From Myxococcota bacterium (GTDB lineage: Bacteria; Myxococcota_A; UBA9160; UBA6930), in the NCBI GenBank assembly GCA_036560185.1, contig DATBRS010000247.1, positions 6,049-70,048 on the forward strand: 64,000 nucleotides of DNA. The letters are read 5' to 3'. Positions 1-32,640 of the stretch are shown here, piece by piece. Numbering within the stretch: the first letter of the stretch is position 1; each line of letters starts with the position of its first letter. Under the pieces are notes generated by a model. The model had not been told where the DNA came from. It did not search any database and worked only from the letters and a program-made list of their open reading frames with translations. Made by a program: the position numbers and the translations under genes.

Positions 1-314
1 GGCTTCCAGTGCGCGCGCATCTCCGTCGAGTCGGGCTCGAATACCGCATCGGCCACGTCGAGGCCGACCACGTGATGGATCGACGCTCCGAAGCTCACGC
101 GCAGCGCCTTGCCGGCCGTCGCGCGCTGCACGAGGCGCGCGGGCGTCGACATGCGATAGCCGCTCGGCAGCGTACGATCGTCGAGCTTGAGCACGAAGTT
201 GCTGCCGCGGCCATCGTGCGGCGTGACCGCACAGGTGATGTGGAAGCGACCGTGGCGATCCGTCGTCGCGATGAGCCCGCGCGCCGTCACGACCCGCACG
301 CCCGGCAGACCGCG
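1..314 (-). other. In-frame continuation of the surface-protein reading frame downstream of a TAG codon (partial, runs off the window edge)
   Basis: I translated the minus strand by hand in the same frame as 315..4688. It gives RGLPGVRVVTARGLIATTDRHGRFHITCAVTPHDGRGSNFVLKLDDRTLPSGYRMSTPARLVQRATAGKALRVSFGASIHHVVGLDVADAVFEPDSTEMRAHWK with no stop down to position 3. This looks like the SdrD-B/carboxypeptidase-regulatory-like module found near the C-terminus of DUF11/OmpA-type surface proteins. Confidence 0.5.
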
Positions 315-3300
315 CTAGCCGCGGGCTTGGACACCGTCGCGATCGGCGTCGTCGAACACCTTCCCTAACACGTCGGTGCAGTCGAAGGTGGGATCTGGAA
401 CGACGCGTACGCGCGCGGTCGCCTCGGGCGAGAGCACGAGGCCGGTCAGGCCGCTGAGCGCCTGCGCGCGATTCACGAACTCGCCCTCGCTGACCCCCGC
501 ACCGACCGCGAGCAGCAGCGCGAGCGTGCGCTGCGTTGCGCTGCCGATGCCGACGTTCGCCCAGAGCAGCTCGCGACCGTTGCGCGTCGGCTCGCTGGGC
601 ACGCCGTCGAGGCGCGCCGAGCCCTCGACATACTGGAAGCCGGCGGGGAAGCGGTCTGCGAGGCTCAGGTCCGGGATCGGCGCCCCCAGCTGGTTCGCGA
701 CCACGATCTCGTAGGGCACCAGCTGGCCGCGGCTGACGTTCACGGAGGGCGTCGACTTGGTGAGGGTCACGGCGCCAGTCAGAACCGGATCGAGCGGGAG
801 ATGGTTGTTGAAGATCTGGCTCGAGCCGGGAGCGTTGGTGTCGTCGAGCACGAGGTGCACCGAATAATTCGTGCCGGCGCTGCGCGCAGGCACGGACTGC
901 GGCGGCGCGAGCTCCGACGGCTGAGACTCGCAGTGCTGCGCCGTCGCCAGCACCGCGTCAGCTGGCGAGCCCGGGCACATCGGCACCGAGAGCGGCGCCG
1001 CCGGCGTCGAGATCGGCGGAATGATCAGGGAGTAGCCGGCGCTGAAGCCGCCCGACGCGGCGACGGCGATCACGTAGCTGCCGCCGCTCGGGCACGCCGT
1101 GTCGGAGAAGTTCAAGTCGAACTTGTAGAAGCCTTCGCCCAGCGTGACTTGGCCCTGCTGCGCGGCGTCGTCGAAGCACGCGGCCGGCAGTGGCGCACCC
1201 GCGCCGGCGTTCATGAGCGTGAGCGTCGCGCCTGCGATCGGGGCGCGGAGCAGCGCGTCGTAGGCGACGCCATTCGGCGTGATCGGAAGGTTCAGGCCCT
1301 GCAGGTTCGCCCCTGACATCACGACGATGTCGGAGATCTGCTGCGGGCCGTTCGTGTAGACGGAGTCGGCCGTGCCGAGCGACGCCGTCGCCGCGCCCGC
1401 CCCGGGCGCGCGGAAGCGCAACATGTACCGGTCGGCGGTCGCGGCGTTCGGAGCGACGCCCGCGATCCGGTACGTGCCGCTCGCGTCGGTGAGGACGCTC
1501 TGCACGGGCAGTCCGTTGCGCGTGAGCTCGACGCTCCAGCCTTGGAGCGGGCGCTCGCTCGCGTCCTGCACTGCGTCAAAGTTCGCGTCGTGCCACGCGG
1601 CGCCGGCGAGGACGCCGACGCCCGGCATCCCGCCAACGTCGATGCTGACGCTCGCGCTCGCCGTTTGCGTCGTGTTCCAAGTGACGACGCCGACGTTCGT
1701 GACGCGCGTACCCATCGCGAGGCCCGCGCCGAGCGTCGCGCGGAAGCGCAGCACGACCGACGCGCCCGGCGCGAGCGGTCCGTACGAAGTGGAGTAGTCG
1801 GCCGTGAGGACCGAACCAGCGAAGCTGACGCCAGTCAGCGCTCCGTTCAGCGTCGCGGAACCCGCGAGATACGCGAGGCTGCCCGGCGTGGCTCCGGCGA
1901 GATCGTCGGTGATGACGACGCCGTAGGCCGGCACGGCCGCGATGTTCCGGACCTGCACGAGGTATTCGAGCTGCGAGCCGGCGAGCGCAGGCCCGCCTCC
2001 CACCACCGCGACCCACTTCGCGATCGTGAGCTGCTGTCCGGCGCCCACGACGACCACGGTCGGCTCGGGGCCCGTCGCCGGATTGCCGTCACCATCGGTC
2101 GGGAGCCCCGGCAGCTCGTTCGTCGTGACGAGCGCCTGATTGGTGATCAGCGTGCCCGCCTGCACGCCGGCGTTTACTTGAAGGTCGAACTCGAGCAGCG
2201 CGCTCTGCCCCGGGCTGATCGTGCCCTGCCCCGCGCCAGGCAGCGGCGGCGTGAGATCCGCCGAGCTGATCGGGATGCCCGACACGAGCGGCGCGACGCC
2301 TCCGTCGGGCCGGCCCACGGCAAGCCCGTTCAAGGTGGTCGAGTCCGCGACATAGGTCGTGCTCGCTGGCACCTGGTCGGTCAGCACCGCGCCCGTCGCG
2401 GGCACGGCGCCCGTGTTCTGCACTTCGATCGTGTAGTGCAGGACGTCTCCCGGATCGACGATGCCCGGCGTGCCGGCGTCGACTTTCAGCGCGGCGCGCT
2501 TGGGAGCGAAAAGGAGCGGCACGCTGCCGACCACATCGCGCGTTGGGTCGTCGGGAATTGCGGTACGCGGGTCGTCCGAGGGCGCGTCGGACACGCCGCC
2601 TTGGAGCGCGCTCACGAACGCCTGATTGGAGATGATCGTGCCATTCACCGCGGCGGCATCGACTACGACGTCGAAGCTCAGCGTCGCGACGTTCGCCGTG
2701 GACGCCGACGCGTCAGCGGGCATTGCGCCTGGGGTCGGATCCTGAGGCGAGTGGAGCGGGATGCCCTGACTGAGGGGCGCGGCGCCGCCCGCTGCGTCCG
2801 GCACGGCGGCGCCGTTCAGCGTGGTGCTGCCGGGCACGTACTGCGCGCTCGCTGGAATCGCATCGCGCAGCGCTGCGTCGATCGCGTCGGCGCTGCCGAC
2901 GTTCTTCACGGTGATCGTGTACCGGAGCGTCTCGCCCGCGAGCAGCGGGGCTCCGTTCAGGTCGGCGGAGATCTTCTCCACGCGGAAGCGCGGCGCGGAC
3001 TGGATCAGCACTCGCGTTGGGTCTTCGTCGCCCGCGACGAAGGGATCAGCGGCGCCGTTCACGTTCGGGTCGTCGCTGCTCGCGAAGGGCGCGCCGCCCG
3101 ACTCGAGCTGCGACTGGTTGGTCGCGTAGCGTCCGTTGACGATGACCGGAGCCAGTACGACCTCGAACTCGACGACCGCGACCGCTCCCGGGGCCAAGCT
3201 CAGGTTGCGAACGTCGACCACGCCCGTGCCCGCGGCACCGCCCGTCGGCATCGTGTTGCTGGCGTCGGCACCGGCCGGCAGCGTCACGACCGTCAGCGTG

Positions 3301-4688
3301 CCCGGCGCGAACACGGGCGGAGCGTTCAGGCGGTCGAGCTCGTCCCGGAGCACGAGATCGTCGAGCGGCGCCGCGCCAGTGTTCTGGATTCGCAGCTGGT
3401 AGCGCAGCCGGTCGCCCGGAGCGGCCTGCGTTGCGGGGCTCATCCCCGTCGTGACGTTGCGGACCGTCTTCTCGAAGAGATAGCTCTGCAAGTCCACGGT
3501 GATGGCGTGGGCGTCCTCGTGGTCGAGCACGCCGGGCGTGCCGTTGGTCAGCGTTCGCGTGTAGGCGACACGGGCGGGGTTGCTGATCTCGTCGTCGAAC
3601 CACTCGGTCGCTCCGGCGACGTTGGTCAGCACCGCGCCATCCTGACTGTTCGCGTCGAGCCGGGACTGATAAGTGACGATCAAGCGCTCGTCCGTGTCGA
3701 TCGCGCCCGCGGGCGTGAGCATCGCGAGGCTGAGCTCGCAGCTCGGCGCGCCGGCCCAGGAGAGCGTGAAGTCGCTGCCCGCGACCAGCGGGCCCTTGCC
3801 GGGGACGGGCGTGACGCCGTCGGCCGCGAAGACTCGCGCGCTCAGCACCTGCGGCGGGGTATCGCACATGCCGCCCGTCGGGCCGCTCGGCAACACATCC
3901 CGGAGGGTCGTATTCCAGGCGTCATTGGGTCCGCTGTTCCGGACGTCGATGCTGAAGAGGCCCGACTGTCCGACGGTGAGCGTCGCTGGGCCCGACTTCG
4001 TGACCTCCAGAACCGGCGGCACCAACGTGAACTGCCCGTCCAGGTTCGCGGTGTTGACCAGGCCTCCCTCGAGCGTGATGAACTCGGTCACCGGATTTCC
4101 GGCGGCGTCGAGGAAGCTCATCGACAACGTGTAGGTCTTCCCGCCGACGGTGAACGTCGTGGGAGCGGGTGAGTCGACGAACGTCACCCGGTCGGTGCAG
4201 CCTTGACCGGGCGGCGTCGGATAGGGACAGGGCGTCTGGTTGTTAGGGGTCTCTTCGTGCGTGAACGTGAAGGTGAAGGTCAGCGGACCGGTCTGAACGC
4301 CGTTCACCAGGAAGTCGAGCACGATGTCGAGCTGGACCGATGTCAGAGACGGAGGGGAAACCGGGAAGTTCCGGTGCGCGAAGGTCGCGACCGGGAACGT
4401 CTGGGGGTTCACGATCGAGATCGTGACGTCGTAGCCGCTCTGCGGACCGGAGGTCGTACCCCAGTTGATGCTCGAGGTCGGGGCCCCGTTCGTGATGACG
4501 GGATCGCCGGGTTGACTCCCGGGGGTGTCGTCGGTCGGGCTGTGCCAGTTTGCGGCCGCGGACGTGAACGTGATCTGAGCTTGGGCCGCCGCGCGCGACG
4601 CGGGCAGAAGCGACGCGGCTAGGCCGATCAGCAACGCGCCGAGCGCGTTGCGCACCGCAGTGCGTCTGTTCCGGGGCCCTCGGTCCAT
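315..4688 (-). CDS. Large secreted DUF11-repeat surface/adhesin-like protein (1457 aa as called; frame interrupted by TAG at 315-317)
   Basis: The ORF is 315..4742. The best start is ATG at 4688, with a GAGGAAG Shine-Dalgarno (SD) just upstream, giving the signal peptide MDRGPRNRRTAVRNALGALLIGLAASLLPASRAAAQA. It contains repeated DUF11-type modules (YVPGSTTLNGAAVPDAAGGAAPLSQGIPL / YVADSTTLNGLAVGRPDGGVAPLVSGIPI / YLAGSATLNGAL; LTKSTPSVNVSRGQLVPYEIVVAN). Composition is Thr/Gly/Ala/Val-rich, typical of beta-sandwich surface proteins. Confidence 0.8.
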   Translation of the reverse strand: MDRGPRNRRTAVRNALGALLIGLAASLLPASRAAAQAQITFTSAAANWHSPTDDTPGSQPGDPVITNGAPTSSINWGTTSGPQSGYDVTISIVNPQTFPVATFAHRNFPVSPPSLTSVQLDIVLDFLVNGVQTGPLTFTFTFTHEETPNNQTPCPYPTPPGQGCTDRVTFVDSPAPTTFTVGGKTYTLSMSFLDAAGNPVTEFITLEGGLVNTANLDGQFTLVPPVLEVTKSGPATLTVGQSGLFSIDVRNSGPNDAWNTTLRDVLPSGPTGGMCDTPPQVLSARVFAADGVTPVPGKGPLVAGSDFTLSWAGAPSCELSLAMLTPAGAIDTDERLIVTYQSRLDANSQDGAVLTNVAGATEWFDDEISNPARVAYTRTLTNGTPGVLDHEDAHAITVDLQSYLFEKTVRNVTTGMSPATQAAPGDRLRYQLRIQNTGAAPLDDLVLRDELDRLNAPPVFAPGTLTVVTLPAGADASNTMPTGGAAGTGVVDVRNLSLAPGAVAVVEFEVVLAPVIVNGRYATNQSQLESGGAPFASSDDPNVNGAADPFVAGDEDPTRVLIQSAPRFRVEKISADLNGAPLLAGETLRYTITVKNVGSADAIDAALRDAIPASAQYVPGSTTLNGAAVPDAAGGAAPLSQGIPLHSPQDPTPGAMPADASASTANVATLSFDVVVDAAAVNGTIISNQAFVSALQGGVSDAPSDDPRTAIPDDPTRDVVGSVPLLFAPKRAALKVDAGTPGIVDPGDVLHYTIEVQNTGAVPATGAVLTDQVPASTTYVADSTTLNGLAVGRPDGGVAPLVSGIPISSADLTPPLPGAGQGTISPGQSALLEFDLQVNAGVQAGTLITNQALVTTNELPGLPTDGDGNPATGPEPTVVVVGAGQQLTIAKWVAVVGGGPALAGSQLEYLVQVRNIAAVPAYGVVITDDLAGATPGSLAYLAGSATLNGALTGVSFAGSVLTADYSTSYGPLAPGASVVLRFRATLGAGLAMGTRVTNVGVVTWNTTQTASASVSIDVGGMPGVGVLAGAAWHDANFDAVQDASERPLQGWSVELTRNGLPVQSVLTDASGTYRIAGVAPNAATADRYMLRFRAPGAGAATASLGTADSVYTNGPQQISDIVVMSGANLQGLNLPITPNGVAYDALLRAPIAGATLTLMNAGAGAPLPAACFDDAAQQGQVTLGEGFYKFDLNFSDTACPSGGSYVIAVAASGGFSAGYSLIIPPISTPAAPLSVPMCPGSPADAVLATAQHCESQPSELAPPQSVPARSAGTNYSVHLVLDDTNAPGSSQIFNNHLPLDPVLTGAVTLTKSTPSVNVSRGQLVPYEIVVANQLGAPIPDLSLADRFPAGFQYVEGSARLDGVPSEPTRNGRELLWANVGIGSATQRTLALLLAVGAGVSEGEFVNRAQALSGLTGLVLSPEATARVRVVPDPTFDCTDVLGKVFDDADRDGVQARG

Positions 4689-4922
4689 TCTTCCTCGTGT
4701 CCACCGACTTGGGCGAACGCATGGCCAGAAAGGAAGAGGCAACCGACGGTTCGGTCCGATTCTGGCGGTCCCGCTGTCCTGGAGCGCGCTGGCTCGTTAG
4801 ACCGGAGACTTTGCGTCGCCACCTTTCGGTGGGTTTGCCTTTGTCTGAATCGCGTTGAGCTCTGGGCTCAATGTCTCAGACGTTTGTTCGTGTCGTTCTC
4901 CTCGTTCGAGTTCACCCTCCGC

Positions 4923-6314
4923 TCAGGTCGCCGGCAGGAATTCGATCGGATAGAGAATCGTGACGGCCGCGATTCCTTCCTTCGCGCCGAAGTCGAAGGC
5001 GCGCACGCGCTCGACGACCTGCGCGGCGAGCCGAGGGGCGTCCATGTCGGTCGCCTGCAGCGCACATCGCGAGACGCTGCCGTCGGGCTCGATCGTCATG
5101 CGCAGCACGATCTGGCCTTGCAGCGTCGGGTCGCTGCGCAGCTCGCGGTTGTAGAGCCGGTAGAGCTCCGCCTTGTGACGGTCGAAGACGATCTGGATCT
5201 CTTCGTCGGTGCGACCGAGCGGCGGGCCGCCTCGGCCCGTAGCGTTCTCGCCCGCTGCCCCACCTCCGCCGCCGCTGCCCGCGATCGCGCTCGTCACGCG
5301 TGCGACCTGGACGCCCTGCATGCCACGGCCGCCCGCGCTACCGCCGCGGCTCAGCGACGCGAGGTTGATTCCGCCACTCGAGCCAGGTGCGCTCGTGGTG
5401 ATCATCGAGCGCGTCGGTGGGCCGCTCGGAGAATCGCCGCTGCTGCTGATGCGCGCCGAGAGCCCGAAGCGCGCATCGGAGCGCAGCGCAGCGACGCCGC
5501 TCAGTCGCTCGCGGAATGCCAGCAGGCCCTTCGGTCCGGACTGCGAGCCCTCTGTGGTCCCCTTCCCGGGGTCCGGCTCCGGACGTCGCTCGGGCGGTGG
5601 CTGCTTGGACTCCGCCTTCGCGAGCGCCTGTGGCAGTCGCTGCGGCTCGGGCTCCGCGACGCGCGGCTCGCTGGGCAAAGGCCGAGGCGTCTCGATCAAG
5701 CGGGTCAGTCGCCTCGGCTGCTCGCGCTCCAGCGGGAGCTCCGGCAACGGGAGATCCACCCCGTGCGCCACGAGCGCGAACGCGACGCTCGCTGCGAGCG
5801 CGGCAGCGAGGCTGCGACGGAAGCGCGAGTCCTCCTCAGCGCCGCGGCTCCAGGGCAGCAGCGTCGAGCGAGCCGGAACTTCGCTGATCTCTCGCTCCAC
5901 GATCCACTCGTGCTCGCGCTCCTGCGCGAGCCGCTCGAGCTCGAGGACGTCACCTGACAGGAGCGCCATGCCCTCGTCCTGGAGCAGCACTTGCTCGAGC
6001 AGCTCCTGACGCTTCTCCTCGATCTCGGCGAAGTACTTTTCGAACGCATCAGCGCGCGCGCGCGCGCCGCGCAGCTGCTCTTCATCGCCCGCGACGCGAT
6101 CGCCCCAGAACAGGCGCGCAGCGCCCTGCGCGCTGAGCTCCTCGAGCGCATCGCAGGCGCGGCCCAACAACTGGTGTTGCTTGCGCTCGGTGCACAGGCT
6201 CGCCAGCTCGTCGTCCGCCGCGCGCAGATCGCGCACGAGTCCGTCCAGCTTCGACCGCGCTCGGTCGAGCTGCTCGCGGAGCGCTCGTTCGTCCTGAGGA
6301 GCGATGGGGTCCAC
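4923..6314 (-). CDS. AgmX/PglI C-terminal-domain (TonB-C-like) protein with coiled-coil N-terminus and Pro/Gly-rich spacer
   Basis: 463-aa ORF. It has an N-terminal coiled coil, one hydrophobic segment (LAAALAASVAFALVAHGV), a Pro/Glu-rich linker and a Gly/Ser-rich stretch. The C-terminal ~90 aa (EEIQIVFDRHKAELYRLYNRELRSDPTLQGQIVLRMTIEPDGSV...AVTILYPIEF) resemble the AgmX/PglI TonB-C-like tail. It is the last gene of the ExbB/ExbD operon. Confidence 0.7.
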   Translation of the reverse strand: MDPIAPQDERALREQLDRARSKLDGLVRDLRAADDELASLCTERKQHQLLGRACDALEELSAQGAARLFWGDRVAGDEEQLRGARARADAFEKYFAEIEEKRQELLEQVLLQDEGMALLSGDVLELERLAQEREHEWIVEREISEVPARSTLLPWSRGAEEDSRFRRSLAAALAASVAFALVAHGVDLPLPELPLEREQPRRLTRLIETPRPLPSEPRVAEPEPQRLPQALAKAESKQPPPERRPEPDPGKGTTEGSQSGPKGLLAFRERLSGVAALRSDARFGLSARISSSGDSPSGPPTRSMITTSAPGSSGGINLASLSRGGSAGGRGMQGVQVARVTSAIAGSGGGGGAAGENATGRGGPPLGRTDEEIQIVFDRHKAELYRLYNRELRSDPTLQGQIVLRMTIEPDGSVSRCALQATDMDAPRLAAQVVERVRAFDFGAKEGIAAVTILYPIEFLPAT

Positions 6315-6321
6315 GCGCCAC

Positions 6322-6822
6322 CTAGATCTGGGAGGACTCTTTCTCGATCACCGCCAGCGAGATGTGCCCATAGCCTTCGCGGGTGCAGGTCGACATCACC
6401 CGCTTCACGACCTCGTACGGAAGGGATTTGTCCGCGATCAGCGTGATCTCGCGGTCGGCCAGCGCCTCGGGCGTCGTCTCCGATTCGAGGAGTGGTCGGG
6501 TCAGCACTGCGCTGAGCGGCTCGATCAACGGATCTTTCGCCGCGCGAATCTCACTCACGCTCGCAACCCGCTCGCCCTGCACGAACAGCTCGTCCCGGGT
6601 GAGCATCACCACGACCGACTGCTTCGCCTCCTCGGGCGCGACCGACTGGGGCACCTGGACACCCTTGCCGTTCTGCACCACCTCGACGTCTGCGGAGTAC
6701 ACGAGCAGGAACGCGACCATTACCGACATGATGTCGATCATGGGGATCAGATTGAGCTCGACTTCCTCGGAGCGTCGCAGGTGGTGCTGCGCCATCCGGT
6801 GGACCCGATTCGACTGGCTCAT
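6322..6822 (-). CDS. ExbD/TolR-family biopolymer transport protein
   Basis: Contains the ExbD signature NLIPMIDIMSVMVAFLL. Internal ATG at 6822 (MSQSNRVH...) is preceded by an AGGGA SD. The longer ORF start at 6876 would overlap the upstream gene. Confidence 0.8.
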   Translation of the reverse strand: MSQSNRVHRMAQHHLRRSEEVELNLIPMIDIMSVMVAFLLVYSADVEVVQNGKGVQVPQSVAPEEAKQSVVVMLTRDELFVQGERVASVSEIRAAKDPLIEPLSAVLTRPLLESETTPEALADREITLIADKSLPYEVVKRVMSTCTREGYGHISLAVIEKESSQI

Positions 6823-6853
6823 GGGTTCCCTCGCCTTCGGCACGCCGGTGCGC

Positions 6854-7381
6854 TCAGGGCGCGTCGCCGACCGCAATCTCCGTGAACAGCGCGATGCGCT
6901 CCGGCTTCAAGCGCACGGCCGTCCGCGTCTCGTCGCGAGCGACTTCCGCGCCCGTGCGCTCCACCGGCAGCTCCGCGCTGCGAACCGCGTCCATCACTTG
7001 GATCAAGTCGTCATAGGCCGTGTCCGGTTCGAGCAGCACCGACGCGTACATCGCATCCGGGTGGTCGCTCTTCAGGGACAAGGCGAGCTCGGAGAGCGTC
7101 GCGAGGTCGTGCGCTCCGTTCCGCTTCGGAATCGCGGCGATCAGCTGGGCGCCGTTCGCCAGCTCGATGCCCTCTCTCCGAACGATCACCTCGAGGCGGA
7201 ACTCGGGCTCCGAGAACCCGCCGCTCGCGGAGCTCGGCAGGTCGAGCTCGAGGATCGCGATGCGCGAGAACACGGCGGTCATCAACAAGAACGTCACCAG
7301 CACGGTGAAGATGTCGATCATCGGGACGAGCAAGAGCTCGACCGGCTTGCGCGGGCGACGACGCGAGAAGCGACGGGCCAC
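6854..7381 (-). CDS. ExbD/TolR-family biopolymer transport protein (second copy)
   Basis: Contains LLLVPMIDIFTVLVTFLLMTAVF, the ExbD TM helix motif. I chose the GTG at 7379-7381 (VARRFSRRRPRKP...), 5 nt after the ExbB stop. The 328-aa ORF in the track extends into the exbB-like gene and is not credible. Confidence 0.7.
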   Translation of the reverse strand: MARRFSRRRPRKPVELLLVPMIDIFTVLVTFLLMTAVFSRIAILELDLPSSASGGFSEPEFRLEVIVRREGIELANGAQLIAAIPKRNGAHDLATLSELALSLKSDHPDAMYASVLLEPDTAYDDLIQVMDAVRSAELPVERTGAEVARDETRTAVRLKPERIALFTEIAVGDAP

Positions 7382-7386
7382 GGGCC

Positions 7387-8067
7387 CTACCCCTGCGCAG
7401 CTTGAGCGAACGCGCGCCGGCTCCGCGCCTGCTCGGCCTGCCGATCCGTGAGCACGTTCAGGAACTTGACGAAGGCCATCTCGAGGCTGGCGATCAGCTC
7501 CGACGTCTTCGTCTGCAGGAAGGCGTGGGCCAGCACGATCGGCACGGCAGTCATTAGGCCGAACGCCGTGCAGTTCATGGCCTCGGAGATGCTCGCCGAC
7601 AGCAGGTTCGCCTTGTCCGCCGGGTTCACCGTCGCCACGGCGCCGAATGCGTGGATCAGGCCGCTCACGGTGCCCAGCAGGCCGAGCAGCGTCGCGAGGT
7701 TCGCGAAGGTCGCGAGGTAGTGCGTGCGCCGCTCGAGGCGCGGCGTGATCTCGATCATGCTCTCGTCCATCGCGATCTCGATGTCCTCGCGACGACGCAC
7801 GGCGCCCTCGCGCGCGAGGCCCATGCTGAGCAGCTGGCACATCGCCGAGTCGCTGCGCCCGGCGATCTCGCGCGCCTTCTCGAAGTCACCGACGGCCAGC
7901 GCTGGCTGGAGGTCTCGCCACACGCTCTGATTCGCGAGCTTGGCTCGCGTGAGCGTCACGTATCGCTCGATGGCGATCGCGGTGCCCACCGCGGCGACCA
8001 TCAGGATCGGATACATGAAGGCGCCGCCCGCCTCGAAGAACCTCACCACGACGTATACGAGCTCCAT
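7387..8067 (-). CDS. MotA/TolQ/ExbB proton-channel family protein
   Basis: 226 aa with three predicted TM segments. It carries the signature YLATFANLATLLGLLGTVSGLIHAF and the C-terminal TM NCTAFGLMTAVPIVLAHAFL. Confidence 0.85.
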   Translation of the reverse strand: MELVYVVVRFFEAGGAFMYPILMVAAVGTAIAIERYVTLTRAKLANQSVWRDLQPALAVGDFEKAREIAGRSDSAMCQLLSMGLAREGAVRRREDIEIAMDESMIEITPRLERRTHYLATFANLATLLGLLGTVSGLIHAFGAVATVNPADKANLLSASISEAMNCTAFGLMTAVPIVLAHAFLQTKTSELIASLEMAFVKFLNVLTDRQAEQARSRRAFAQAAQG

Positions 8068-8106
8068 TGCGGAGTCCTCCCTGAAAGCTCGCGTCCGCTG
8101 CGCGCG

Positions 8107-8415
8107 CTATGGAGCGCTGCGCTCGCTTCCGCCGTCCGACGCCGCGCGGATCCGGTAGTAGGCCAGTTCCCGCAGGAACACGTCCCGATCGACGGGTTGC
8201 AATCCGTCATCGAGCGATCGCGGGACGGAGAGCGTGTCGCCGAGCACGGAACTCTTCCAAGGTACGATCACCAACGCCTTCGGTGCGTCGTCGTTGCCGA
8301 GAACCGACATGCCCGACATCTCCTTCTCCGACGGTGCGGGCTTGTCCTCGGCCGTTGCCGCGGAGGCCGCGAGCATCAGGGCGGTGATCCAGAACACGAA
8401 TACTCTGGGCATCAT
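8107..8415 (-). CDS. Small secreted protein of unknown function (102 aa)
   Basis: Signal peptide MMPRVFVFWITALMLAASAATAED. The start directly abuts the stop of the upstream TPR gene (GGAAGGGAG TGA ATG). Its position inside the operon supports it being real. Confidence 0.55.
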   Translation of the reverse strand: MMPRVFVFWITALMLAASAATAEDKPAPSEKEMSGMSVLGNDDAPKALVIVPWKSSVLGDTLSVPRSLDDGLQPVDRDVFLRELAYYRIRAASDGGSERSAP

Positions 8416-9060
8416 TCACTCCCTTCCTTCACGCGCGCGCAGGGCCGCGAGCCACTTCGTGGCCTCGGCGTCGTGAGGCGCGAGCTCCGCGTAACGCTCG
8501 TAGTTCTCGAGCGCGCAGCTGCGATCGGCGAGATAGAGGTCGCAGAGAATCGCGAGATTGCGCCGCGCGAAGTGGAAGGTCGGGTAGCGCGCGAGCGCGA
8601 GCTCGTAGCTCCTGCGCGCGTCCGCGAAGCGCCCCGTCTTGCGCTGGATGATGCCGAGCTCGTTCAGCGCGACGGGATGCTGCGGGCTCGCCTCGAGAGC
8701 GCGCGTGAGGCTCGCCTCCGCCCGCGAGAGATCGCCGGTGCGCTCGTAGGCGATCGCGAGGTCGACGTGCGGCGCCGCCGCCTTGGGCGCCGCCTCGGTC
8801 ACGCGCTCGAGCAGCGGGATCGCCTCGCTCCAGCGCTCGGCGCCGAGCAGCTCCACGGCGCGCTCGAACTCACCGCGCACGCCGCCCTTGACGCGCAGCG
8901 ACTGCGCGACGACGAACCCGTTCGGGTCGTGCGCCGCCGCGCCCGCCCTTCCGCTCGACGGCTTCGCGACGCCGGAATCTGCGGCGAGCAGTGCGGCGGC
9001 GAGCGCGAGCGCCGCGCGCGCGAGCCGACGGCGGCGACGCCACTCAGAGTGTCGGCGCAT
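8416..9060 (-). CDS. Secreted tetratricopeptide-repeat protein (~214 aa)
   Basis: TPR-like helical repeats ([81 protein letters not shown]). ATG at 9060 has a GGAGG SD and gives the signal peptide [30 protein letters not shown]. The ORF-track start at 9138 would overlap the upstream gene by 95 nt. Confidence 0.7.
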
Positions 9061-12000
9061 CGGTCGCCTCCGTGGGAAGGAACTCCTCCAGGTCCGGGAG
9101 GAGCTCGTCCGCTGCGTTGGCAGGCGGCGCTGGCTCACCGCCCTCTCCGGGCGAGGGCACGACGCCGGCCTCCGCGGGCTTCGCGGGCACCGCGGCCTGC
9201 GCGACGCCGTCCGCCGGCGCGTCCGCTGCAGGCGAGCGATACGCGTAACTGTCCATCGACGCGAGGAAGCCGCTGCTGTGCTCGCTCCTCGCGTAGCGCC
9301 CGGGCACGAGCGCCGCGAGCTGCGCGAGACTCTTCTCGATCCACGCGTTCCACACGCCCACGCGAATCAGCTCGACGTTCTTCTCGTGCACACCGATCGC
9401 CTTCTCCTCGAACGCGAACGCCTCCTGCTCGATGCCCGCTTGGTACTCGCTGCGCTCGCTCGCGCTCAGGTCGGCGGGACGCTCGGAGGTGGTCAGGGCG
9501 CGCGCGAACTCGGCGTAGGCCTCGGCCGTGTGGAACGTGGCCGCCGCCGTGACGTCGGCCACCTCGTAGTCGACGAGCGCGGCAAGGGCGGAGAGCGCCG
9601 AGTTCAGCCGCCGCTGCTTCTCGGCGAGGCTCTGCTCGAGCGGCTGTACCAGCTGCACCTCAGCGAACGCGCGCAGGAGATCCTCGGCGAGCACGAGGGC
9701 CGAGCGCCCAGCGAGCGTGCGCACGCGCGTCGTGCGCGCCGCGCCGCTCGCGGCTGCGTCGAGTGCGACGATGGCCCGCAGCTGCTCGCGGCGCGCGCTC
9801 GAGTCGCCCGCCGTTTCGTACAAGGCTGCGACCTTCTCGCGCGTCTCCACGGCGGCTTCGACCGGATCCGGGAACTCTCCCGCATACGCGAGATACGCCG
9901 CGATCGCGCGCTCGGGCTGCTTCGCGCTCTCATACAGCTCGCCCACGAGAAGCAGCGCCTCGGCGCGCAGCCCGGGCGCCTCGGCCTCGGCCGCGACGCG
10001 CTCGTACTCCGCTGCCGCGCGCGGCAGGTCGCCCTGCTCTCGACGAACGCGCGCGAGCTGTTTCGTCGCTTCGTGCGCGAGTGCGTGCGTGGCATGCGCC
10101 TCGCGGAAGCTCTCGAGCACCGCGGCCGCGCCGGCCCAGTCCTTCAACGTGATGAGCGCGGCAGCCGCGTCGTACTCCGCGGCGGGCCGGATCGAGGAGC
10201 TCGGCACGGCGCCGGCGACCCGCAGGAAGTGACCTGCGGCGGCGCGCGCATCGCCCGCGGCGTTCGCCTGCTCACCCTGCTTGTAGATGGCGGCGGCGAG
10301 ATTGTCAGCGAAGCCCGAGCGCGACGCGTCCTCCGCGGGTGTTAGGGAGAGGACCTGGCCATATGCCTGCTCGGCCTGCACGTAGTCCGCGAGCTCGAGC
10401 GAGGCGTGAGCCACTGCGATCCAGGCCGAACGGCGAATCGGCGCTTCCGCGGTCGGATAGCCGTCGATCAGCCGGCGGCCGTTCGCGATCGCGGGCGCGA
10501 GCTCCTTCATCGCGTACAGGTCGTCGACGGCCGCGCCGAGCACAGCTGCCGCCTGCTCGTGCTGCGGGAACGCGTCCACGAAGCGCAGCGTGCTCCGGAC
10601 CGCTTCGCGCCGTGCCGCTTCCTGCTCGGGCCCGGTCGCGAGCTTCTGGCTCTCGCGATAGGCGTAGATGGCCGCGTAGCCTGCCGCCGCGGACCGCTCG
10701 TGCGCCGGGTACTGGTAGGCGATCTGCTCGTACGCGAGAGCCGCCTCGCCGAAATCTCGGTGCTCGAGCAACAGATCCGCCAGCCGATGATGGATCGCCG
10801 GCGACTCCGGCTCTCTCGGGAACGACGCGAGGTAGGCGCGATACCAGCGCGCCGCCTCGGCGAAGTTCGCGGGCTTCTCCGCCGCGAGGCCCTCCGTCTG
10901 GAAGAGCGCGTGATGGTGGCTCGCCAGGTCCGCGAGGTTGCGTTTCAGATACGCGACCACTTCGGGCGCGGCAGCGAGATCGAAATGGCGCCAGTACGGG
11001 GAGTCGAGTCCGTACGTCGCCGCGAACTCCTTCTTCGCCTCGAGCACGAGCTTCGGGAAGCCGCCGGCCTCGAAGATCTCGATCACGCGCGTGCTGAAGC
11101 GAGGCGACGACGCGTGCAGCGGGTGCAACGCGATGAACGCCCGGTACGACTTGGCGGCATCGTCGTAGCGGAGCTTCTCGAGGTAGAACTCACCGAGCTG
11201 CGCGTAGATGCGATCCTCGTAGCTGCGCTCGCCCTTCGCCGCGAAATACGCGGAGACCGAGTCGGGACCGCCGAGGTTCGAGAAGGCGAGGCTGATCACG
11301 CGGAACGTGTCCGCGACGCGGCGCTCCGAGTCCTCGTCGTGCGACTGATCGAAGTCGTATCCCGACCCGACTTTGTGATCGAGCAGGCGGACGTACTCGT
11401 CGAGCGCCTCGTCGAGCAGGTCCTGCTTGTAGAACGTCCAGCCGAGCTTGTAGAGCGCAGGCTCGTAGTACTCGGAGCCCGCGGATTTGCGCGTGATCGC
11501 CGCGTAGGCGTTCTCCGCGTCGCGCCAGCGCCGGCGCGTGAAGAAGTACTCGGCGCGCCGGAACTGCACCTCGTCCACGTGGCGCGATGCCGGATACTTC
11601 GCGACGAGCTCCTCGACGACGCCAATCGCCTCGTCGACCCGGCCCAGCTCATCGAGGGCACGCGCCTTCTGGTAGAGCACCTGATCGTTGTGCCGGTAGC
11701 TCGGATACTCGGCGAGGATGCGGTCGTAGAGCGCGACCGCTTCGAGTGGATCCATTGCCGGCGCGGCGCCTGCCGGCAGCTCGAGGGTGGCGTCGCCGCG
11801 GCGCGTGGCGATCGCCTGCTCCCCTGCGACGCGCTGCTCGAACAACTCGTCGGACTCACCCGCACGCGAGCTCGGCCCCGTCCCTGCCTCCACGCGCGCA
11901 TCGGCCAGGACCGTCGCCGCGGGCGCGGGCGCGGGCAGCGCCGGCCGCGCGGCGTCACCGAGCGGGCCGTACTCCTTCTCGAGCTCCAGGTCCGCGAGGC

Positions 12001-12214
12001 GCCGCATCGCTTCGGGCGTGAGCTCGGAGACCGGAGCCTCGTCGAGAAACTGCCGGTAGCCCTGCATCGCCTGGCCCAAGCTGTCGTTCGGCTCCACCTG
12101 CGAGAGATCCGGCTCCATGTGGTGCAGCGCGCCGAGCGTGTGCTGCGTCGGCTCGCTCGCGCACGCGGCGGCGAGCACGGAGGCGAAGAGCGCAGCGGCG
12201 GGAGGGCGACGCAC
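9044..12214 (-). CDS. Large TPR-repeat lipoprotein (1056 aa), GltD/AgmU-like in size and architecture
   Basis: Lipoprotein-type N-terminus [21 protein letters not shown]-like helical repeats run throughout (e.g. [56 protein letters not shown]). The start lies 2 nt after the upstream stop. Confidence 0.75.
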
Positions 12215-12216
12215 TC

Positions 12217-14088
12217 TCAGTGCGCTTGCGCCTTGGCGGCGCGGTCGTAGCTGTCGGCGAACGCGAAGCGAGCCTGGCTGAGCGACGTCGCGATGCGCTC
12301 GCGCCGCGATTCGAGCTCGGCGATCGCGACGCGCTCCAGCACTTCACCCTGCCGAGTCATCAGGGAGCTGAGCCGTTCGAGCGCAGCGCTCGCGCGGCTG
12401 CGGAGTCCGGCGATCGTCTCGTCGTAGCCGACGTAGCTGTGCGTCGCGGCCTGGCGCGTCCGCACGAACGCCTCGTGCCGAGCCTGGAGGCGCGCGACAT
12501 CGCCCTCCAGCGCGGCGAGGTGCGCGTGGGCCTGCGTCAGCCGTTCCTGATAGTTCGTCTCGAGCGCGAAGCTCAGCAGGCCTCTCAGGCGGGCCACCCG
12601 CCGTCGCAGCGTTTCGTTCTGCGGGTCGCTCGCTTCGCCGAGGCGTTCCTCCGCGCTCTCGATCCACGCACCCAGCTCCTGCTCGTCCGTGGTCGCGAGA
12701 TGTTCTGGCCGCGGCGTGGTGAGCAGGTCGTTCAAGCGCTCGCGCAGCCGCTCGCGCTGCTCGAGTCGCAGCCGCATCCGCGCGTCCAGCCGACGGAACT
12801 CCGCATCGATCTCGGGCAGGAGTGGCGCGTAGTGCGCCCGGCGCAGCCGGATCGCGTCCTCGAAGGCGTCCAGACTGGCGAGCCAGCGCCCGAGCCGCCT
12901 TCGCATGTCCTCCAGGTCGAGGTAGTTCTGGAGCGCGGTCTGGAAGTCGTGCGACGCCATCAGCGTCGCGAGGTAGAAGGTCTCCGGCGCGTCAGGCAGG
13001 CTGCGCAAGCGGATCACCCACTCTTCGTCCTGGCGGATCTCCTCGCGCACGAGCGCCTCGAGGAACGCGCCCTTGCGCACGCTGGCGATCGAAGCGTCGA
13101 CGCGCTGGAGCTGCGTGCCGAGCGTCGCGACCGCGTCGCCGTAGAGAAGCGCCGCGCGGCCGTGGACGTCGAGGTGACTGTACGCGTACGGGAGTGCGAG
13201 CAGCGCCTCCTGGACCGCTGCGTCGGTCGCGTCGCGCTTCGCGAGCAGGCTCCAGGGTACGACGGCGCGCGCGAAGTTCTGCGCCGCTGCATCGGCCCAG
13301 CCAGCGCGCAAGAGCGCCTGATTCGAGAATGGCCCGTCGAGGCGCACGCGGTCCAGCGACTGCTGTGCGGGACCGAAATGCGACGCCTCGAACAGCAGCG
13401 TGCCGAGCACGAGATTCGACTTGTCGCGAATCGCACGCGCCGGCTCGTCGAGCGCCTCGACCTGGCCCGCTCGGTCGAGCTGCCGAAGCGCATCCTCGGT
13501 GCGTTCCTCCTGGAGCAGCGCGATACCGAGGTTGTAGGCGGAGAACGGCCCGAGCGTCTCGGAGCCTCGCAGCTGCTCGAGCAACGCGACCGCCTGCTCC
13601 GGCCGGCCGAGGGCGAGCTGCGCGTTCGCGCGCAGGAACTCGACGTCGTCGCGGATCGCTTCGGGCACCTCGCCGTGGATGCGCGCCAGAGCATCGAGCG
13701 CGTCCTGCGGCTGTCCCTTCTGGAAGTCGAGGCGCGCGAGCCGGAAGGCCGCGTCGTTGCGCACTGGATCCGGAACGTCGGCCTCGAGCACCGCCGTGAT
13801 GGCGCGTCCGGCGCGCTGATGCATGCGGTACCGCAGCTCGAAATCGCCGACGTCGAACTCGGCGGTCGCGATGAAGGGCGCGAGCGAGTCGAGCCCTGGC
13901 TCGTCCACGCGGAAGTGCTGCGCCACTTCGCTGTCGAGGCGCTCGAGTGCCTCGAACCAGTGCTCCTGGTAGGCGTGATAGAGCGCCTCGCCGAAATAGA
14001 GATCATGCGAGTCGCCGGCGCGCGCCGCGCCGGCGTAGAGGAGAGCCGCGGCTGCGAGCGCGGCGCGCGTCGCAAGCACGGTGGGCAC
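12217..14088 (-). CDS. Secreted TPR / coiled-coil protein (623 aa)
   Basis: Signal peptide MPTVLATRAALAAAALLYAGAARAGD. The N-terminal half is TPR-like and the C-terminal half is a long Arg/Glu/Leu-rich coiled coil. There is a 3-nt gap to the upstream gene. Confidence 0.7.
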   Translation of the reverse strand: MPTVLATRAALAAAALLYAGAARAGDSHDLYFGEALYHAYQEHWFEALERLDSEVAQHFRVDEPGLDSLAPFIATAEFDVGDFELRYRMHQRAGRAITAVLEADVPDPVRNDAAFRLARLDFQKGQPQDALDALARIHGEVPEAIRDDVEFLRANAQLALGRPEQAVALLEQLRGSETLGPFSAYNLGIALLQEERTEDALRQLDRAGQVEALDEPARAIRDKSNLVLGTLLFEASHFGPAQQSLDRVRLDGPFSNQALLRAGWADAAAQNFARAVVPWSLLAKRDATDAAVQEALLALPYAYSHLDVHGRAALLYGDAVATLGTQLQRVDASIASVRKGAFLEALVREEIRQDEEWVIRLRSLPDAPETFYLATLMASHDFQTALQNYLDLEDMRRRLGRWLASLDAFEDAIRLRRAHYAPLLPEIDAEFRRLDARMRLRLEQRERLRERLNDLLTTPRPEHLATTDEQELGAWIESAEERLGEASDPQNETLRRRVARLRGLLSFALETNYQERLTQAHAHLAALEGDVARLQARHEAFVRTRQAATHSYVGYDETIAGLRSRASAALERLSSLMTRQGEVLERVAIAELESRRERIATSLSQARFAFADSYDRAAKAQAH

Positions 14089-14091
14089 GAC

Positions 14092-14643
14092 TCAGCCGCC
14101 TCCGAGCTGAATGCTGGCTTCGCCCGAAGCGCCGCCGAGCGAGACCTCGAGCAACTTGGGCGGCGCGCCCTTGCTGAAGCCGAAGCTTTGGCTGCCGGAG
14201 AAGTCCGCGCCGCTCGCCGTCACCCCAGCGAAGGAGACTTCGATCTGGTGCTCGCCCGTCGCCACGTTGCCCGTGTAGATGCGCTGCACGCCGCCCTTCT
14301 GAAGAGCCTCCAGCTCCTTGAAGCTGTAGACGTGCCGCGCGACCGGCTCGCCGTCGATCTGGATCTGCACCGAATCGAGCCGGAAGGGCTCGCGCGATGC
14401 GAGCGAGACGAACACGGCGACCTGTGTGTTCGACGGATAGAGCAGGCGCTCCTCGAGCCGGTCGAGCTCCGTCGCGATCGACAGAACCTCGGACTTCACC
14501 TCCTGCACCTGCTCGTCGAGGCCGCGCATCTCGCGTTTGGCGTCGTCGCCTGCGAGAACCGCGGGCGCGGCGAAGAGACTGACTAGGGTGGCGAGCGCGG
14601 CGCCCGTGCGGGCGCGGCGGCTCGCGCCGACGATTGCGGCCAC
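14092..14643 (-). CDS. Secreted protein of unknown function (183 aa), first gene of the operon
   Basis: GTG at 14641-14643 is preceded by a GGAGGG SD 7 nt upstream. It gives the signal peptide VAAIVGASRRARTGAALATLVSLFAAPAVLAGDD, then a short coiled coil and a beta-rich domain (FRLDSVQIQIDGEPVARHVYSFKELEALQKGGVQRIYTGNVATGEHQIEVSF). The N-terminal 82 aa of the track ORF look non-coding. Confidence 0.6.
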   Translation of the reverse strand: MAAIVGASRRARTGAALATLVSLFAAPAVLAGDDAKREMRGLDEQVQEVKSEVLSIATELDRLEERLLYPSNTQVAVFVSLASREPFRLDSVQIQIDGEPVARHVYSFKELEALQKGGVQRIYTGNVATGEHQIEVSFAGVTASGADFSGSQSFGFSKGAPPKLLEVSLGGASGEASIQLGGG

Positions 14644-15209: not shown

Positions 15210-15285
15210 TGGCGCCCCGGGTAGGACTCGAACCTACGACCACCTGCTTAGAAGGCAGGCGCTCTATCCCCTGAGCTACCGGGGC
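15210..15285 (-). tRNA. tRNA-Arg(TCT): tRNA-Arg (anticodon UCU)
   Basis: The reverse complement folds as a cloverleaf: GCCCCGG-TA-GCTC-AGGGGATA-GAGC-G-CCTGC-CTTCTAA-GCAGG-TGGTC-GTAGG-TTCGAGT-CCTAC-CCGGGGC-G-CCA. The acceptor stem is perfectly paired, the T-loop is TTCGAGT, and CCA is encoded. Confidence 0.95.
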
Positions 15286-15450: not shown

Positions 15451-15528
15451 GGTGGGTGTAGCTCAGCTGGTTAGAGCGCCAGATTGTGACTCTGGAGGTC
15501 GCGGGTTCGATCCCCGTCACTCACCCCA
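15451..15528 (+). tRNA. tRNA-His(GTG): tRNA-His (anticodon GUG) with encoded G-1
   Basis: G(-1)-GTGGGTG-TA-GCTC-AGCTGGTTA-GAGC-G-CCAGA-TTGTGAC-TCTGG-AGGTC-GCGGG-TTCGATC-CCCGT-CACTCAC-C-CCA. The extra 5' G is typical of tRNA-His. Confidence 0.95.
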
Positions 15529-15982: not shown

Positions 15983-16579
15983 TCACTCGCTGCTGCGGGT
16001 GGCGGCCTCTTTCTTTTCCAACACTGCGCGGCCGCGCGGCGAGATGCGGTAGCCGACCTCGAGGCTCTGCGTGAGCCCGAGCTCCTTCAGCTTTCGCACG
16101 CGCAGCTTGAAATCGGGGCGCGGCATGCCGACACGCGCCGCGAGCACGCTCGATACGACGCCCGGCTGCTCCGCGATCGCGCGCAGCACGCGCGCCGTCC
16201 ACGCGCCGACGCGGCTCGCCGCGTCGAGGCGCGCGAGCCGCGTCGCGATCGCATCGTGCTCGGGGCGCGCGAGCTTCGCCTGCGCGCGCAGCGCGGCGCG
16301 CGGATCCGCGCCGCCCCAGCGCACGCGAACGCGATACAGCTCGCCTTCGCCGGCGTAGTGCGCGAGCTCGGCGCGCAGCTCCGCCAGCGATGCGTGCCCC
16401 GCCGCGCGCGCGTCGCGCTGGGTGATGCGGCCGGCTCGAGCCACCGCGACGATCTCGACGACGCCGCGCGCGTCGCGGCTGCGACTGCCCGGCCTCGCGC
16501 GCGGCGCTCTCCAGCGGCGAAACAGCAGCGTGATGCGGCCGGCGCGGATGGCGTCGAGGGTCTCGCCTCTCAGCAGCAC
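15983..16579 (-). CDS. Hypothetical protein, ASCH-like N-terminal domain plus winged-helix-like C-terminus
   Basis: 198-aa ORF. The N-terminus (LRGETLDAIRAGRITLLFRRW...) looks ASCH-like. The C-terminus (VLAARVGMPRPDFKLRVRKLKELGLTQSLEVGYRISPRG) looks like a wHTH. The assignment is tentative. Confidence 0.45.
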   Translation of the reverse strand: MLLRGETLDAIRAGRITLLFRRWRAPRARPGSRSRDARGVVEIVAVARAGRITQRDARAAGHASLAELRAELAHYAGEGELYRVRVRWGGADPRAALRAQAKLARPEHDAIATRLARLDAASRVGAWTARVLRAIAEQPGVVSSVLAARVGMPRPDFKLRVRKLKELGLTQSLEVGYRISPRGRAVLEKKEAATRSSE

Positions 16580-16607
16580 GCGCGCACGCAGCAGCCCCGC
16601 AGCGCCA

Positions 16608-18626: not shown

Positions 18627-18698
18627 GCGGCCTCCTGCGTTTCCCGCCGGCATCCTCGCACACGCGGCTATCGTGCCGCGCCGAATCGAGGAGCCCGC

Positions 18699-19472: not shown

Positions 19473-19529
19473 TGCGTCCGGCGCGGCGCTCGGCGCCCTA
19501 CTGCGCTATCGCGCGCACGAGGAGACGAC

Positions 19530-20000: not shown

Positions 20001-20008
20001 GCGCCGGC

Positions 20009-21550: not shown

Positions 21551-21592
21551 CGCCTCTCCCCGAGCGCTTAGTATGCGCGCTGGGGAGGATGC

Positions 21593-23374: not shown

Positions 23375-23491
23375 AGCCGCGGCTTCGTTCGGCTTTCGCT
23401 TCGCGCCGCGGCCCGTAGCTTTCGGCGCATCGCGCCAATGCTCAAGCTGAACGCGCGGCGACCGAAGGCGCATGCATCGAGGGACTCGAGC

Positions 23492-25242: not shown

Positions 25243-25317
25243 CCGCGCGCGCGGCCGAGATCCGGCGCCGCGCCCGGCTGCCGCGGTAGGATGCGCGCCT
25301 TTGCCGGAGGCGCTCGC

Positions 25318-26493: not shown

Positions 26494-26572
26494 ACTTCGC
26501 TCGGCTGCGCCTCGCTGCGCGCGGCCTGCGGCCGCTTGCGGCCGCGCTCACGGACACGGGAGAAGACTGAAG

Positions 26573-27649: not shown

Positions 27650-27651
27650 GC

Positions 27652-28428: not shown

Positions 28429-28465
28429 AGCGGCGAGGCCGCGCGCGCTCCGCCCGGGCGCCGCG

Positions 28466-28924: not shown

Positions 28925-28930
28925 GGCGGC

Positions 28931-30437: not shown

Positions 30438-30521
30438 GCGCGCACGCTATCGCCGCTCTCGGAGCGGCGCGCGGCGGACAGCACGGCTCCGGGCCGTGGT
30501 AGGGTGGGCGAGGAGGCACCG

Positions 30522-30938: not shown

Positions 30939-30951
30939 GCGGCGGCGCCAC

Positions 30952-32637: not shown

Positions 32638-32640
32638 GAG

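Follow-up and report, generated by a model that had tools for sequence, protein, structure and literature searches.

A nine-gene operon of the Agl-Glt core type beside a c-di-GMP-I riboswitch and a giant DUF11 surface protein in a genome labelled Myxococcota

The stretch of DNA analysed here (the window) covers 64,000 nucleotides (nt) of contig DATBRS010000247.1, positions 6,049 to 70,048 of the forward strand, from the metagenome-assembled genome (MAG) GCA_036560185.1, which is labelled Myxococcota; its G+C content is 71%. Nine tightly packed open reading frames (ORFs) on the minus strand, designated g1 to g9 and running from 14643 down to 4923, encode a Tol/Ton-like motor together with three tetratricopeptide repeat (TPR) proteins, and they very probably constitute a copy of the core complex of the Agl-Glt machinery. 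The operon is followed by a predicted riboswitch for cyclic di-GMP (c-di-GMP) and a gene encoding a giant DUF11 surface protein, both of which recur in related loci. For the function of the whole we favour an explanation whose chances we hold to be about even: a core-type Agl/Glt machine, that is, a Tol/Ton-like, proton-driven transducer spanning the cell envelope, may act on a fibrillar adhesin under the control of c-di-GMP.

The nine same-strand ORFs were found at the coordinates given in an earlier reading of the DNA by itself (the sequence-only reading), and independent gene calls from NCBI and JGI on near-identical contigs gave the same products, of 183, 623, 1046-1058, 214, 101-102, 226, 175, 166 and 463 amino acids (aa). 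The junctions from g1 to g9 measure +3, +2, -17, 0, +39, +5, +31 and +7 nt, so that the limits described there, an overlap of 17 nt and a gap of 39 nt, were found again. The g6-g7 junction would be +14 instead of +5 nt if g7, the first ExbD gene, started later, its start being taken from the call on a near-identical contig. Pfam and NCBIfam likewise recovered the domain content proposed there, namely three TPR proteins, one channel, two ExbD proteins and an AgmX/PglI tail.

In their account of the core complex, Luciano et al. (2011, PMC3169522) list seven Group B genes (gltC, gltD, gltE, gltG, aglR, aglQ and aglS) and one additional gene, which probably make up one operon in Gamma- and Betaproteobacteria, Geobacter and Fibrobacter; no function was assigned to them, and by themselves they do not confer gliding. 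According to Table S3 of that work, the core of Methylibium encodes a GltC-like protein of 634 aa, a GltD-like protein of 941 aa and a GltE-like protein of 243 aa, followed by a skipped locus tag and by AglR, AglQ, AglS and GltG of 217, 170, 163 and 371 aa, and the core operons of Teredinibacter (TERTU), Thioalkalivibrio (Tgr7) and Cellvibrio (CJA) share this layout. The products of g2 to g9 (623, 1056, 214, 102, 226, 175, 166 and 463 aa) follow in the same order and have similar sizes. Because gene order and sizes match these core operons, we read the operon as the core complex; likeness to the Agl-Glt proteins of M. xanthus was judged by the order and sizes in Table S3 and by the NCBIfam models. 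Common to both are a single operon with one channel, two ExbD/TolR proteins, three TPR proteins, a protein with an AgmX-PglI tail and, between the gltE-like and the aglR-like gene, a small additional one.

The view of the sequence-only reading that the operon is a compact version of the Agl-Glt machine, reduced to its core, is supported by order and sizes. Its statement that genes of the GltA/B/H/K/C type are missing holds for GltA, GltB, GltH and GltK and fails for GltC, which is a core gene and whose position is occupied by g2. In or beside the operon none of gltA, gltB, gltF, gltH, gltI, gltJ and gltK was detected in the 64-kb window, and the cluster contains no MglA or AglZ gene. Three features set the operon apart from the core as Luciano et al. 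(PMC3169522) present it. The host is labelled Myxococcota, for which their account describes expanded and not core-only clusters; g1 is absent from their seven core genes, though it is the conserved first gene of the operon; and the flanking riboswitch, the DUF11 giant and a second giant protein with OmpA-type domains are not mentioned in the passages on the core there or in the later papers.

The motor module consists of g6, g7 and g8. The channel protein g6 matches the MotA_ExbB family (PF01618) with 93 bits, reaches 63.5 bits with the TolQ equivalog (cutoff 221) and 44 bits with that of ExbB (cutoff 206), and has TolQ (6.5e-11) as its nearest solved structure, ahead of ExbB (1.7e-7) and MotA (0.03). 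With the ExbD family (PF02472) g7 scores 55 and g8 70 bits, and both remain at 27-40 bits with the TolR equivalog (cutoff 127) and at most 29 bits with ExbD (cutoffs 123-216). The comparison with TolQ, ExbB, TolR and ExbD profiles had been proposed beforehand as a check, and with all scores far below the equivalog cutoffs g6 to g8 are non-canonical by these thresholds. The two ExbD/TolR paralogues are only 20% identical to each other. Each of them retains the membrane Asp, which aligns with D23 of TolR and D25 of ExbD, and the channel motifs GTVxG and TAxGL...P are retained in g6. With the residues of the proton path in place, the motor parts look functional.

The last product, g9, carries the TonB-like C-terminal domain of GltG and GltJ (PglI and AgmX), as indicated by 60.4 bits with the AgmX/PglI C-terminal domain model NF033768 (cutoff 40). 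Residues 276-461 align to positions 450-647 of the GltG model NF033760 (38.8 bits, cutoff 650); the GltJ model yields only 22 bits, through the shared tail, and TonB_C 19.4 bits, which is under its threshold of 24.6. From the sequence we read an N-terminal coiled-coil region, one membrane helix, a linker rich in Pro, Gly and Ser and the AgmX/PglI (TonB-C-like) C-terminal domain, and no FHA domain was found in g9. Column identity across phyla amounts to 75% in the C-terminal 110 aa.

TPR repeats were found by Pfam and NCBIfam in g2, g3 and g4. In position and size g2 resembles Mpe_A1224 (634 aa) and TERTU_3747 (640 aa), both of which are assigned to MXAN_2541/GltC in the tables of Luciano et al., and g4, which scores 68 bits with TPR_16, resembles Mpe_A1226 (243 aa), TERTU_3745 (225 aa) and Tgr7_0541 (190 aa) listed there. 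The large lipoprotein g3 passes the model TIGR02795 (tol_pal_ybgF) with 94.5 bits (cutoff 90.1) and also gives matches to YfiO/BamD; with the profile of its family, CpoB (6g5s, 5e-9), YbgF (2xev) and BamD were found in the PDB. There is in addition a weak similarity to PorW/SprE, the TPR lipoprotein of the type IX secretion system (T9SS). The lipobox residue Cys18 is nearly invariant in the family, and 1201 clusters at 50% identity match g3 at E<=1e-30. The CpoB/YbgF-type TPR module of Tol-Pal is reported to bind TolA. A fusion of a g2-like N-terminal half with a g3-like C-terminal half was confirmed in P0177 (1518 aa), and five further proteins of about 1500 aa (P0186, P0200, P0207, P0214 and P0241), which match g3 at the same offset, look like g2-g3 fusions as well.

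For the two small secreted proteins g1 and g5 no family match was obtained in Pfam or NCBIfam, and both have numerous homologues. Those of g1 number 7506 and are mostly 60-80% identical, and wherever a related locus has sufficient flank, g1 almost always precedes g2. Its AlphaFold2 model (predicted local distance difference test, pLDDT, 75) consists of a signal peptide, a long helix (33-68) and an immunoglobulin-like beta-sandwich (73-169), for which no fold match at E<1e-3 was found in the PDB. The 1409 homologues of g5 share the invariant motif GNDDAPKxLVIVPWKSS...PVDRDVFxRELxYY and a C-terminal helix; the AlphaFold2 model, mostly of low confidence, is disordered except for a helix at 77-94. 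The position of g5 is that at which the tables of Luciano et al. skip a locus tag (Mpe_A1227, Tgr7_0540 and TERTU_3744). In the structural model published in 2025 for M. xanthus, GltF is described as largely disordered, with a C-terminal helix inserted into a crevice of GltC and a beta-strand that pairs with the TonB-like domain of GltG (PMC11761067). Because its architecture of disorder, invariant strand and C-terminal helix matches this description, g5 is a good candidate for a bridge of the GltF type.

The operon is common rather than exotic. A pattern scan with one genome per species detected the GltD-like protein in at least 584 genomes, and the best 80 loci were examined; these include Woeseiaceae, Steroidobacteraceae, Lysobacter niastensis, Cellvibrionaceae, Thiohalomonadaceae, Burkholderiales, Desulfuromonadales, Acidobacteriota, Nitrospirota and Myxococcota. 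With the proteins of the window as tblastn queries, the complete set of nine was recovered in unchanged order in 45 of the 80 loci, most gaps in the remaining loci being due to contig ends or to a divergent variant of the motor. A lack of conserved synteny would have spoken against the sequence-only reading; the order proved conserved across phyla, and the nine-gene arrangement is far beyond chance. Syntenic loci were present in Gamma- and Betaproteobacteria not documented to glide and in relatives of Geobacter (Cellvibrionaceae, Lysobacter, Woeseiaceae, Burkholderiales/Curvibacter, Desulfuromonadales and Geopsychrobacteraceae).

The divergent variant occurs mostly in genomes labelled Acidobacteriota (loci L017, L019, L022, L029, L036, L037, L045, L052 and L088). 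These loci retain g1 to g5 and the C-terminal domain of g9, and their MotA-like channel is just 26-31% identical to g6. In the two variant loci that were scanned, ExbD genes missed by tblastn lie at the position of g7 and g8, with two of them in L022, so the design with one channel and two ExbD proteins appears to be retained, and the variant seems to have exchanged its motor module. Homologues with 50-65% identity were also seen in MAGs labelled Spirochaetales, Clostridia and Anaerolineales in addition to Gammaproteobacteria and Myxococcota (L020, L030, L038, L070 and others), and such mixed labels suggest mis-binning, unreliable labels or frequent horizontal transfer of the cluster.

That the next gene on the same strand encodes a giant DUF11 surface protein was a further statement of the sequence-only reading with which the Pfam and NCBIfam matches agree. 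The product has a signal peptide, a choice-of-anchor-K N-terminal domain (NF038131), an SdrD_B domain, six or more DUF11 repeats (immunoglobulin-like domains of the isopeptide type) and a conserved C-terminal region; it carries a Sec signal peptide and no recognised signal for export across the outer membrane. DUF11 has been renamed CLIPPER and is described as an isopeptide-bonded stalk domain of fibrillar adhesins (PMC12617251). In relatives the protein is encoded by a single ORF of 1640-1960 aa. Adjacency was counted over the 44 loci with at least 3 kb of sequence beyond g9: a DUF11 homologue was adjacent in 38 of them by tblastn, directly downstream in 32 and upstream of g1 in six, so that the link to the neighbouring DUF11 protein stands as a conserved adjacency. 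Five of the six exceptions have a related large ORF (median about 1790 aa) in the same place, and the only one of these that was scanned (L038, 1941 aa) contains a DUF11 domain.

In each of the 23 loci with sufficient sequence beyond the DUF11 gene, a second giant, of about 1700 aa, is encoded after it on the same strand. This protein combines a signal peptide with three OmpA_C-like peptidoglycan-binding domains similar to those of the binders Pal, YiaD and MotB, and its C-terminal third reads like a possible beta-barrel. From the closest relative, L010, we infer that the corresponding gene lies just beyond coordinate 1 of the window. The view that outer-membrane partner genes are missing therefore needs correction, since the conserved cluster of the relatives includes this outer-membrane-type triple-OmpA protein. 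The giants and the operon occur in two circularly permuted layouts, either g1 to g9, DUF11 giant and OmpA giant or DUF11 giant, OmpA giant and g1 to g9, which argues for a functional unit of eleven genes. In the literature searched, a constant association of the core with two giants was not found.

The leader of the DUF11 gene contains a c-di-GMP-I (GEMM-I) riboswitch aptamer, which had gone unmentioned in the sequence-only reading. It matches the Rfam model RF01051 with 71.9 bits (gathering score 35, E 3.9e-12) over model positions 1-87 and occupies part of the 180-nt stretch that separates g9 from the DUF11 gene, 72 nt upstream of an ATG in front of which stands GAGGAAGA. The aptamer is closely followed by a pyrimidine tract, CCUCUUCCUUUCU, which could pair with the ribosome-binding site. 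For the leader, the minimum free energy fold does not stand out (z = -0.15). With a covariance model made from five instances, 46 hits were obtained in related loci, and among the 51 loci with room for it 33 carry the aptamer directly after g9. Compensatory changes were observed in six of six pairs of helix 2, the stem of which is closed by a conserved GAAA loop; in the hand-drawn structure, which was partly out of register for the second aptamer helix, helix 3 is only 46% paired, and of this drawing the Rfam assignment is independent. The riboswitch is assigned by covariance model and its ligand, c-di-GMP, is predicted. By eye, G20 of the Vc2 aptamer, presumably the position of ligand selectivity, aligns with a G, which would favour c-di-GMP over cyclic GMP-AMP (cGAMP). 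In eight loci a further aptamer is located just upstream of g1, where none was found in the window, and in those eight the nine-gene operon itself may be under c-di-GMP control, too. No link between such a riboswitch and DUF11 proteins, and no c-di-GMP riboswitch at a core operon, was found in the literature searched.

If TolQ5R2 and the AglR5QS model are taken as guides, g6 would form a pentameric channel around a heterodimer of g7 and g8, and proton flow through this complex would be converted into movement of the TolA/GltG-like g9. The long linker and the TonB-C-like end of g9 might then dock on a periplasmic TPR scaffold of g3 and g4, with g5 bridging the C-terminal domain of g9 to the GltC-like g2 in the way modelled for GltF, its beta-strand and its C-terminal helix making the contacts, and g2 would connect to an outer-membrane partner. 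Because they are the conserved neighbours of the operon, the DUF11/CLIPPER fibre and the OmpA giant with its possible C-terminal barrel are the likeliest partners and the likely output. The proton-motive force would in this way be used to deploy, expose, anchor or tension the adhesin when c-di-GMP signals a surface lifestyle. That the operon handles an adhesin at all we rate at close to an even chance. The proposal fits a published idea: in discussing the core, the groups of Mignot and Islam have suggested that it could be enough for secreting proteins or handling adhesins, and gliding has been seen as intertwined with the handling of adhesins.

As far as the Agl-Glt focal adhesion of M. xanthus is described in PMC11761067, the operon probably works alike, with an AglR5QS-type motor, a GltG-like transducer on a GltD/GltE scaffold, a GltC-like connector and a GltF-like bridge. 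The output there is the outer-membrane adhesin CglB and would here be the DUF11 fibre, which belongs to a different protein family. Compared with that machine, the operon is without the GltA/B/H/K barrels and lipoprotein, GltI, GltJ and the cytoplasmic MglA/AglZ platform, g9 begins with a coiled coil and not with FHA domains, g4 has half the size of GltE, and control by a riboswitch is added.

Large repetitive surface adhesins whose deployment is tied to c-di-GMP are known from LapA/LapD/LapG and from the riboswitch-controlled adhesins of C. difficile, and in the GldLM-SprB system of T9SS a proton-driven motor and the TPR lipoprotein PorW/SprE serve an adhesin. The operon differs from these in that it contains no component of a type I secretion system, of LapG/LapD or of T9SS, receives its c-di-GMP input at the RNA level and uses a motor of the Tol/Agl type.

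The kinship of the motor with Tol-Pal raises the question of whether the operon is a second envelope-integrity system, which would tether or remodel the outer membrane, the motor and g9 capturing a peptidoglycan-binding partner, with the triple-OmpA giant as analogue of Pal, g3 coordinating with wall synthesis and the DUF11 fibre as a passenger and not the target. The likeness is considerable, for both have a TolQ-like channel, TolR-like plugs with the Asp, a TolA-like transducer with a long linker, a CpoB/YbgF TPR module and an OmpA-type partner nearby; TolQ is the closest solved structure to g6, g3 passes the tol_pal_ybgF cutoff and matches the structures of CpoB and YbgF, and the neighbour carries three domains similar to Pal, YiaD and MotB. 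Nevertheless we regard this explanation as unlikely: the CpoB/YbgF module of g3 is the only part that passes a Tol-Pal cutoff, all Tol equivalog scores of the motor proteins being far too low, no gene for TolB or Pal was found in the cluster, and two distinct TolR paralogues, three TPR proteins and giant partners are foreign to Tol-Pal. Moreover, riboswitch control and a fibrillar adhesin as neighbour point to a surface lifestyle and not to housekeeping, and the patchy distribution, which is consistent with horizontal transfer, is unlike that of core envelope machinery.

Somewhat more doubtful still is a strict secretion system, in which the motor and g9 would power the passage of the DUF11 giant, once exported by Sec, through the outer membrane by way of the OmpA giant's barrel, their task ending there. 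Such a system would account for a giant with a Sec signal and no recognised outer-membrane export signal and for its co-conserved putative outer-membrane partner, and it can draw on the published suggestion that the core may suffice for secretion and on the weak similarity of g3 to PorW/SprE of T9SS. No translocon-like family was detected in the cluster, though, and the barrel is only putative (E 0.059); the scheme also overlaps with the preferred adhesin-handling machine, from which sequence alone cannot separate it. We consider it very improbable that the operon is an ordinary TonB-ExbBD set for nutrient uptake or a complete gliding motor, although families of the ExbB, ExbD and TonB-C type are present and the host is labelled Myxococcota. 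The ExbB, ExbD and TonB_C models all stay under their thresholds, two ExbD paralogues and three TPR proteins are encoded, as pointed out in the sequence-only reading, and no TonB-dependent receptor was found in or beside the cluster, either in the window or in the relatives. Against a gliding motor speak the lack of GltA/B/H/I/J/K, MglA and AglZ in the cluster and the occurrence of the same operon in many lineages without documented gliding, and according to the account of the core by Luciano et al. (PMC3169522) its genes by themselves are insufficient for gliding.

Several observations weigh against the identification with the Agl-Glt core and against a role in adhesin handling. The equivalog scores of g4 and g9 for GltE and GltG lie far under the cutoffs; with the GltE model NF033758, g4 reaches 41 bits (cutoff 225), and generic TPR models score alike. 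PDB searches with the C-terminal profile of g9 and with the single g9 sequence returned no match to TonB or TolA. The likeness of g5 to GltF is architectural only, and for the additional core gene the account of Luciano et al. (PMC3169522) reports no myxobacterial homologue. Regarding the giants, the DUF11 frame of the window is interrupted by an in-frame TAG at 315-317 on the minus strand, within an SdrD_B-like motif in which four relatives have Glu (GAG). Past the TAG the frame is open and conserved to the start of the window, and the codon may have arisen recently by nonsense mutation, or it may stem from strain heterogeneity or a faulty assembly. In a few loci the giant lies in another orientation. 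For the C-terminal approximately 700 aa of the OmpA giant the only hint of a barrel is a non-significant match to the OmpG porin (E 0.059), and a search of the PDB gave no match. The aptamer is lacking after g9 in 18 of the 51 loci, and gene adjacency is in any case no proof of a physical or functional link.

What the core does has been asked since 2011 and is key to how a motor of the Tol/Ton type became a gliding machine; in the literature searched neither a characterised function of the core nor the conserved g1 was found. That the core moves as a unit of eleven genes with two giants, and often with riboswitches, leads to the hypothesis of motor-driven adhesin deployment; among the carriers that can be cultivated are Lysobacter niastensis, Cellvibrio japonicus (CJA_3312-3319), Methylibium petroleiphilum (Mpe_A1224-1231) and Marinobacter. 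In its widest form, which we put forward tentatively and which may well be wrong, the core would be the engine of an unrecognised, c-di-GMP-controlled and proton-powered system that exports, anchors or tensions a giant isopeptide-stabilised fibre through a triple-OmpA partner with a possible barrel, and adhesin handling would be ancestral to the machines for gliding and for the Nfs spore coat. If this were true, it would in effect be a previously unseen class of machine for deploying adhesins or for secretion, present in several phyla. Motor-driven adhesin deployment, if correct, would connect surface adhesion in many environmental bacteria with c-di-GMP signalling and with envelope motors run by protons, and it would explain why gliding of M. 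xanthus was built around the exposure of an adhesin. If it is wrong, the operon is another copy of a known, uncharacterised gene set.

The coordinates of all features are given in Table 1.

Table 1. Features of the operon and its surroundings in the window and in related loci (loci with L numbers are given in their own coordinates).
Feature	Position	Strand	Description
g1	14092..14643	-	183-aa secreted protein, first gene of the operon
g2	12217..14088	-	623-aa secreted protein; N-terminal TPR region, C-terminal coiled coil; GltC (AgnA) position
g3	9044..12214	-	1056-aa TPR lipoprotein, GltD (AgmU)-like; CpoB/YbgF-like and BamD-like TPR modules
g4	8416..9060	-	214-aa secreted TPR protein; short core-type GltE (AglT)-like; 17-nt overlap with end of g3
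g5	8107..8415	-	102-aa secreted protein; 'additional gene' of the core operon; candidate GltF-like bridge
g6	7387..8067	-	226-aa proton channel of the MotA/TolQ/ExbB family, AglR-like
g7	6854..7381	-	175-aa ExbD/TolR paralogue 1, AglQ position
g8	6322..6822	-	166-aa ExbD/TolR paralogue 2, AglS position
g9	4923..6314	-	463-aa GltG (PglI)-like transducer; JGI call also 463 aa
c-di-GMP-I (GEMM-I) riboswitch aptamer	4761..4849	-	RF01051; leader of the DUF11 gene
Giant DUF11/CLIPPER fibrillar surface protein	1..4688	-	Runs past the start of the window; in-frame TAG at 315-317
OmpA giant	L049 2355-7460		Also in L078, L079, L082, L087, L007, L010, L036, L037 and others
Aptamer upstream of g1	L009 7372-7458		
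Aptamer upstream of g1	L028 7238-7324		
Aptamer upstream of g1	L024 7355-7442		
Aptamer upstream of g1	L031 7161-7247		
Aptamer upstream of g1	L073 7363-7441		
Aptamer upstream of g1	L039 4001-4087		
Aptamer upstream of g1	L018 220-306		
Aptamer upstream of g1	L023 816-902		

A scan of the operon for promoters, including the region upstream of g1, revealed no promoter-like site, and terminator-like sites within the operon were no commoner than in shuffled sequence. About 565 nt upstream of g1 a tRNA-Arg(TCT) gene is located on the strand of the operon (15210-15285, minus), close to a divergent tRNA-His(GTG) gene (15452-15528, plus). Beyond these, a 198-aa protein without family match is encoded at 15983-16579, which also adjoins the operon in L007. 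The region 15983-33696 otherwise contains ordinary metabolic and transport genes, encoding an alkyl sulfatase, an arylsulfotransferase-like protein, an amidohydrolase, a homologue of indoleamine 2,3-dioxygenase, acyl-CoA dehydrogenases and efflux proteins of the MFS and HlyD families.

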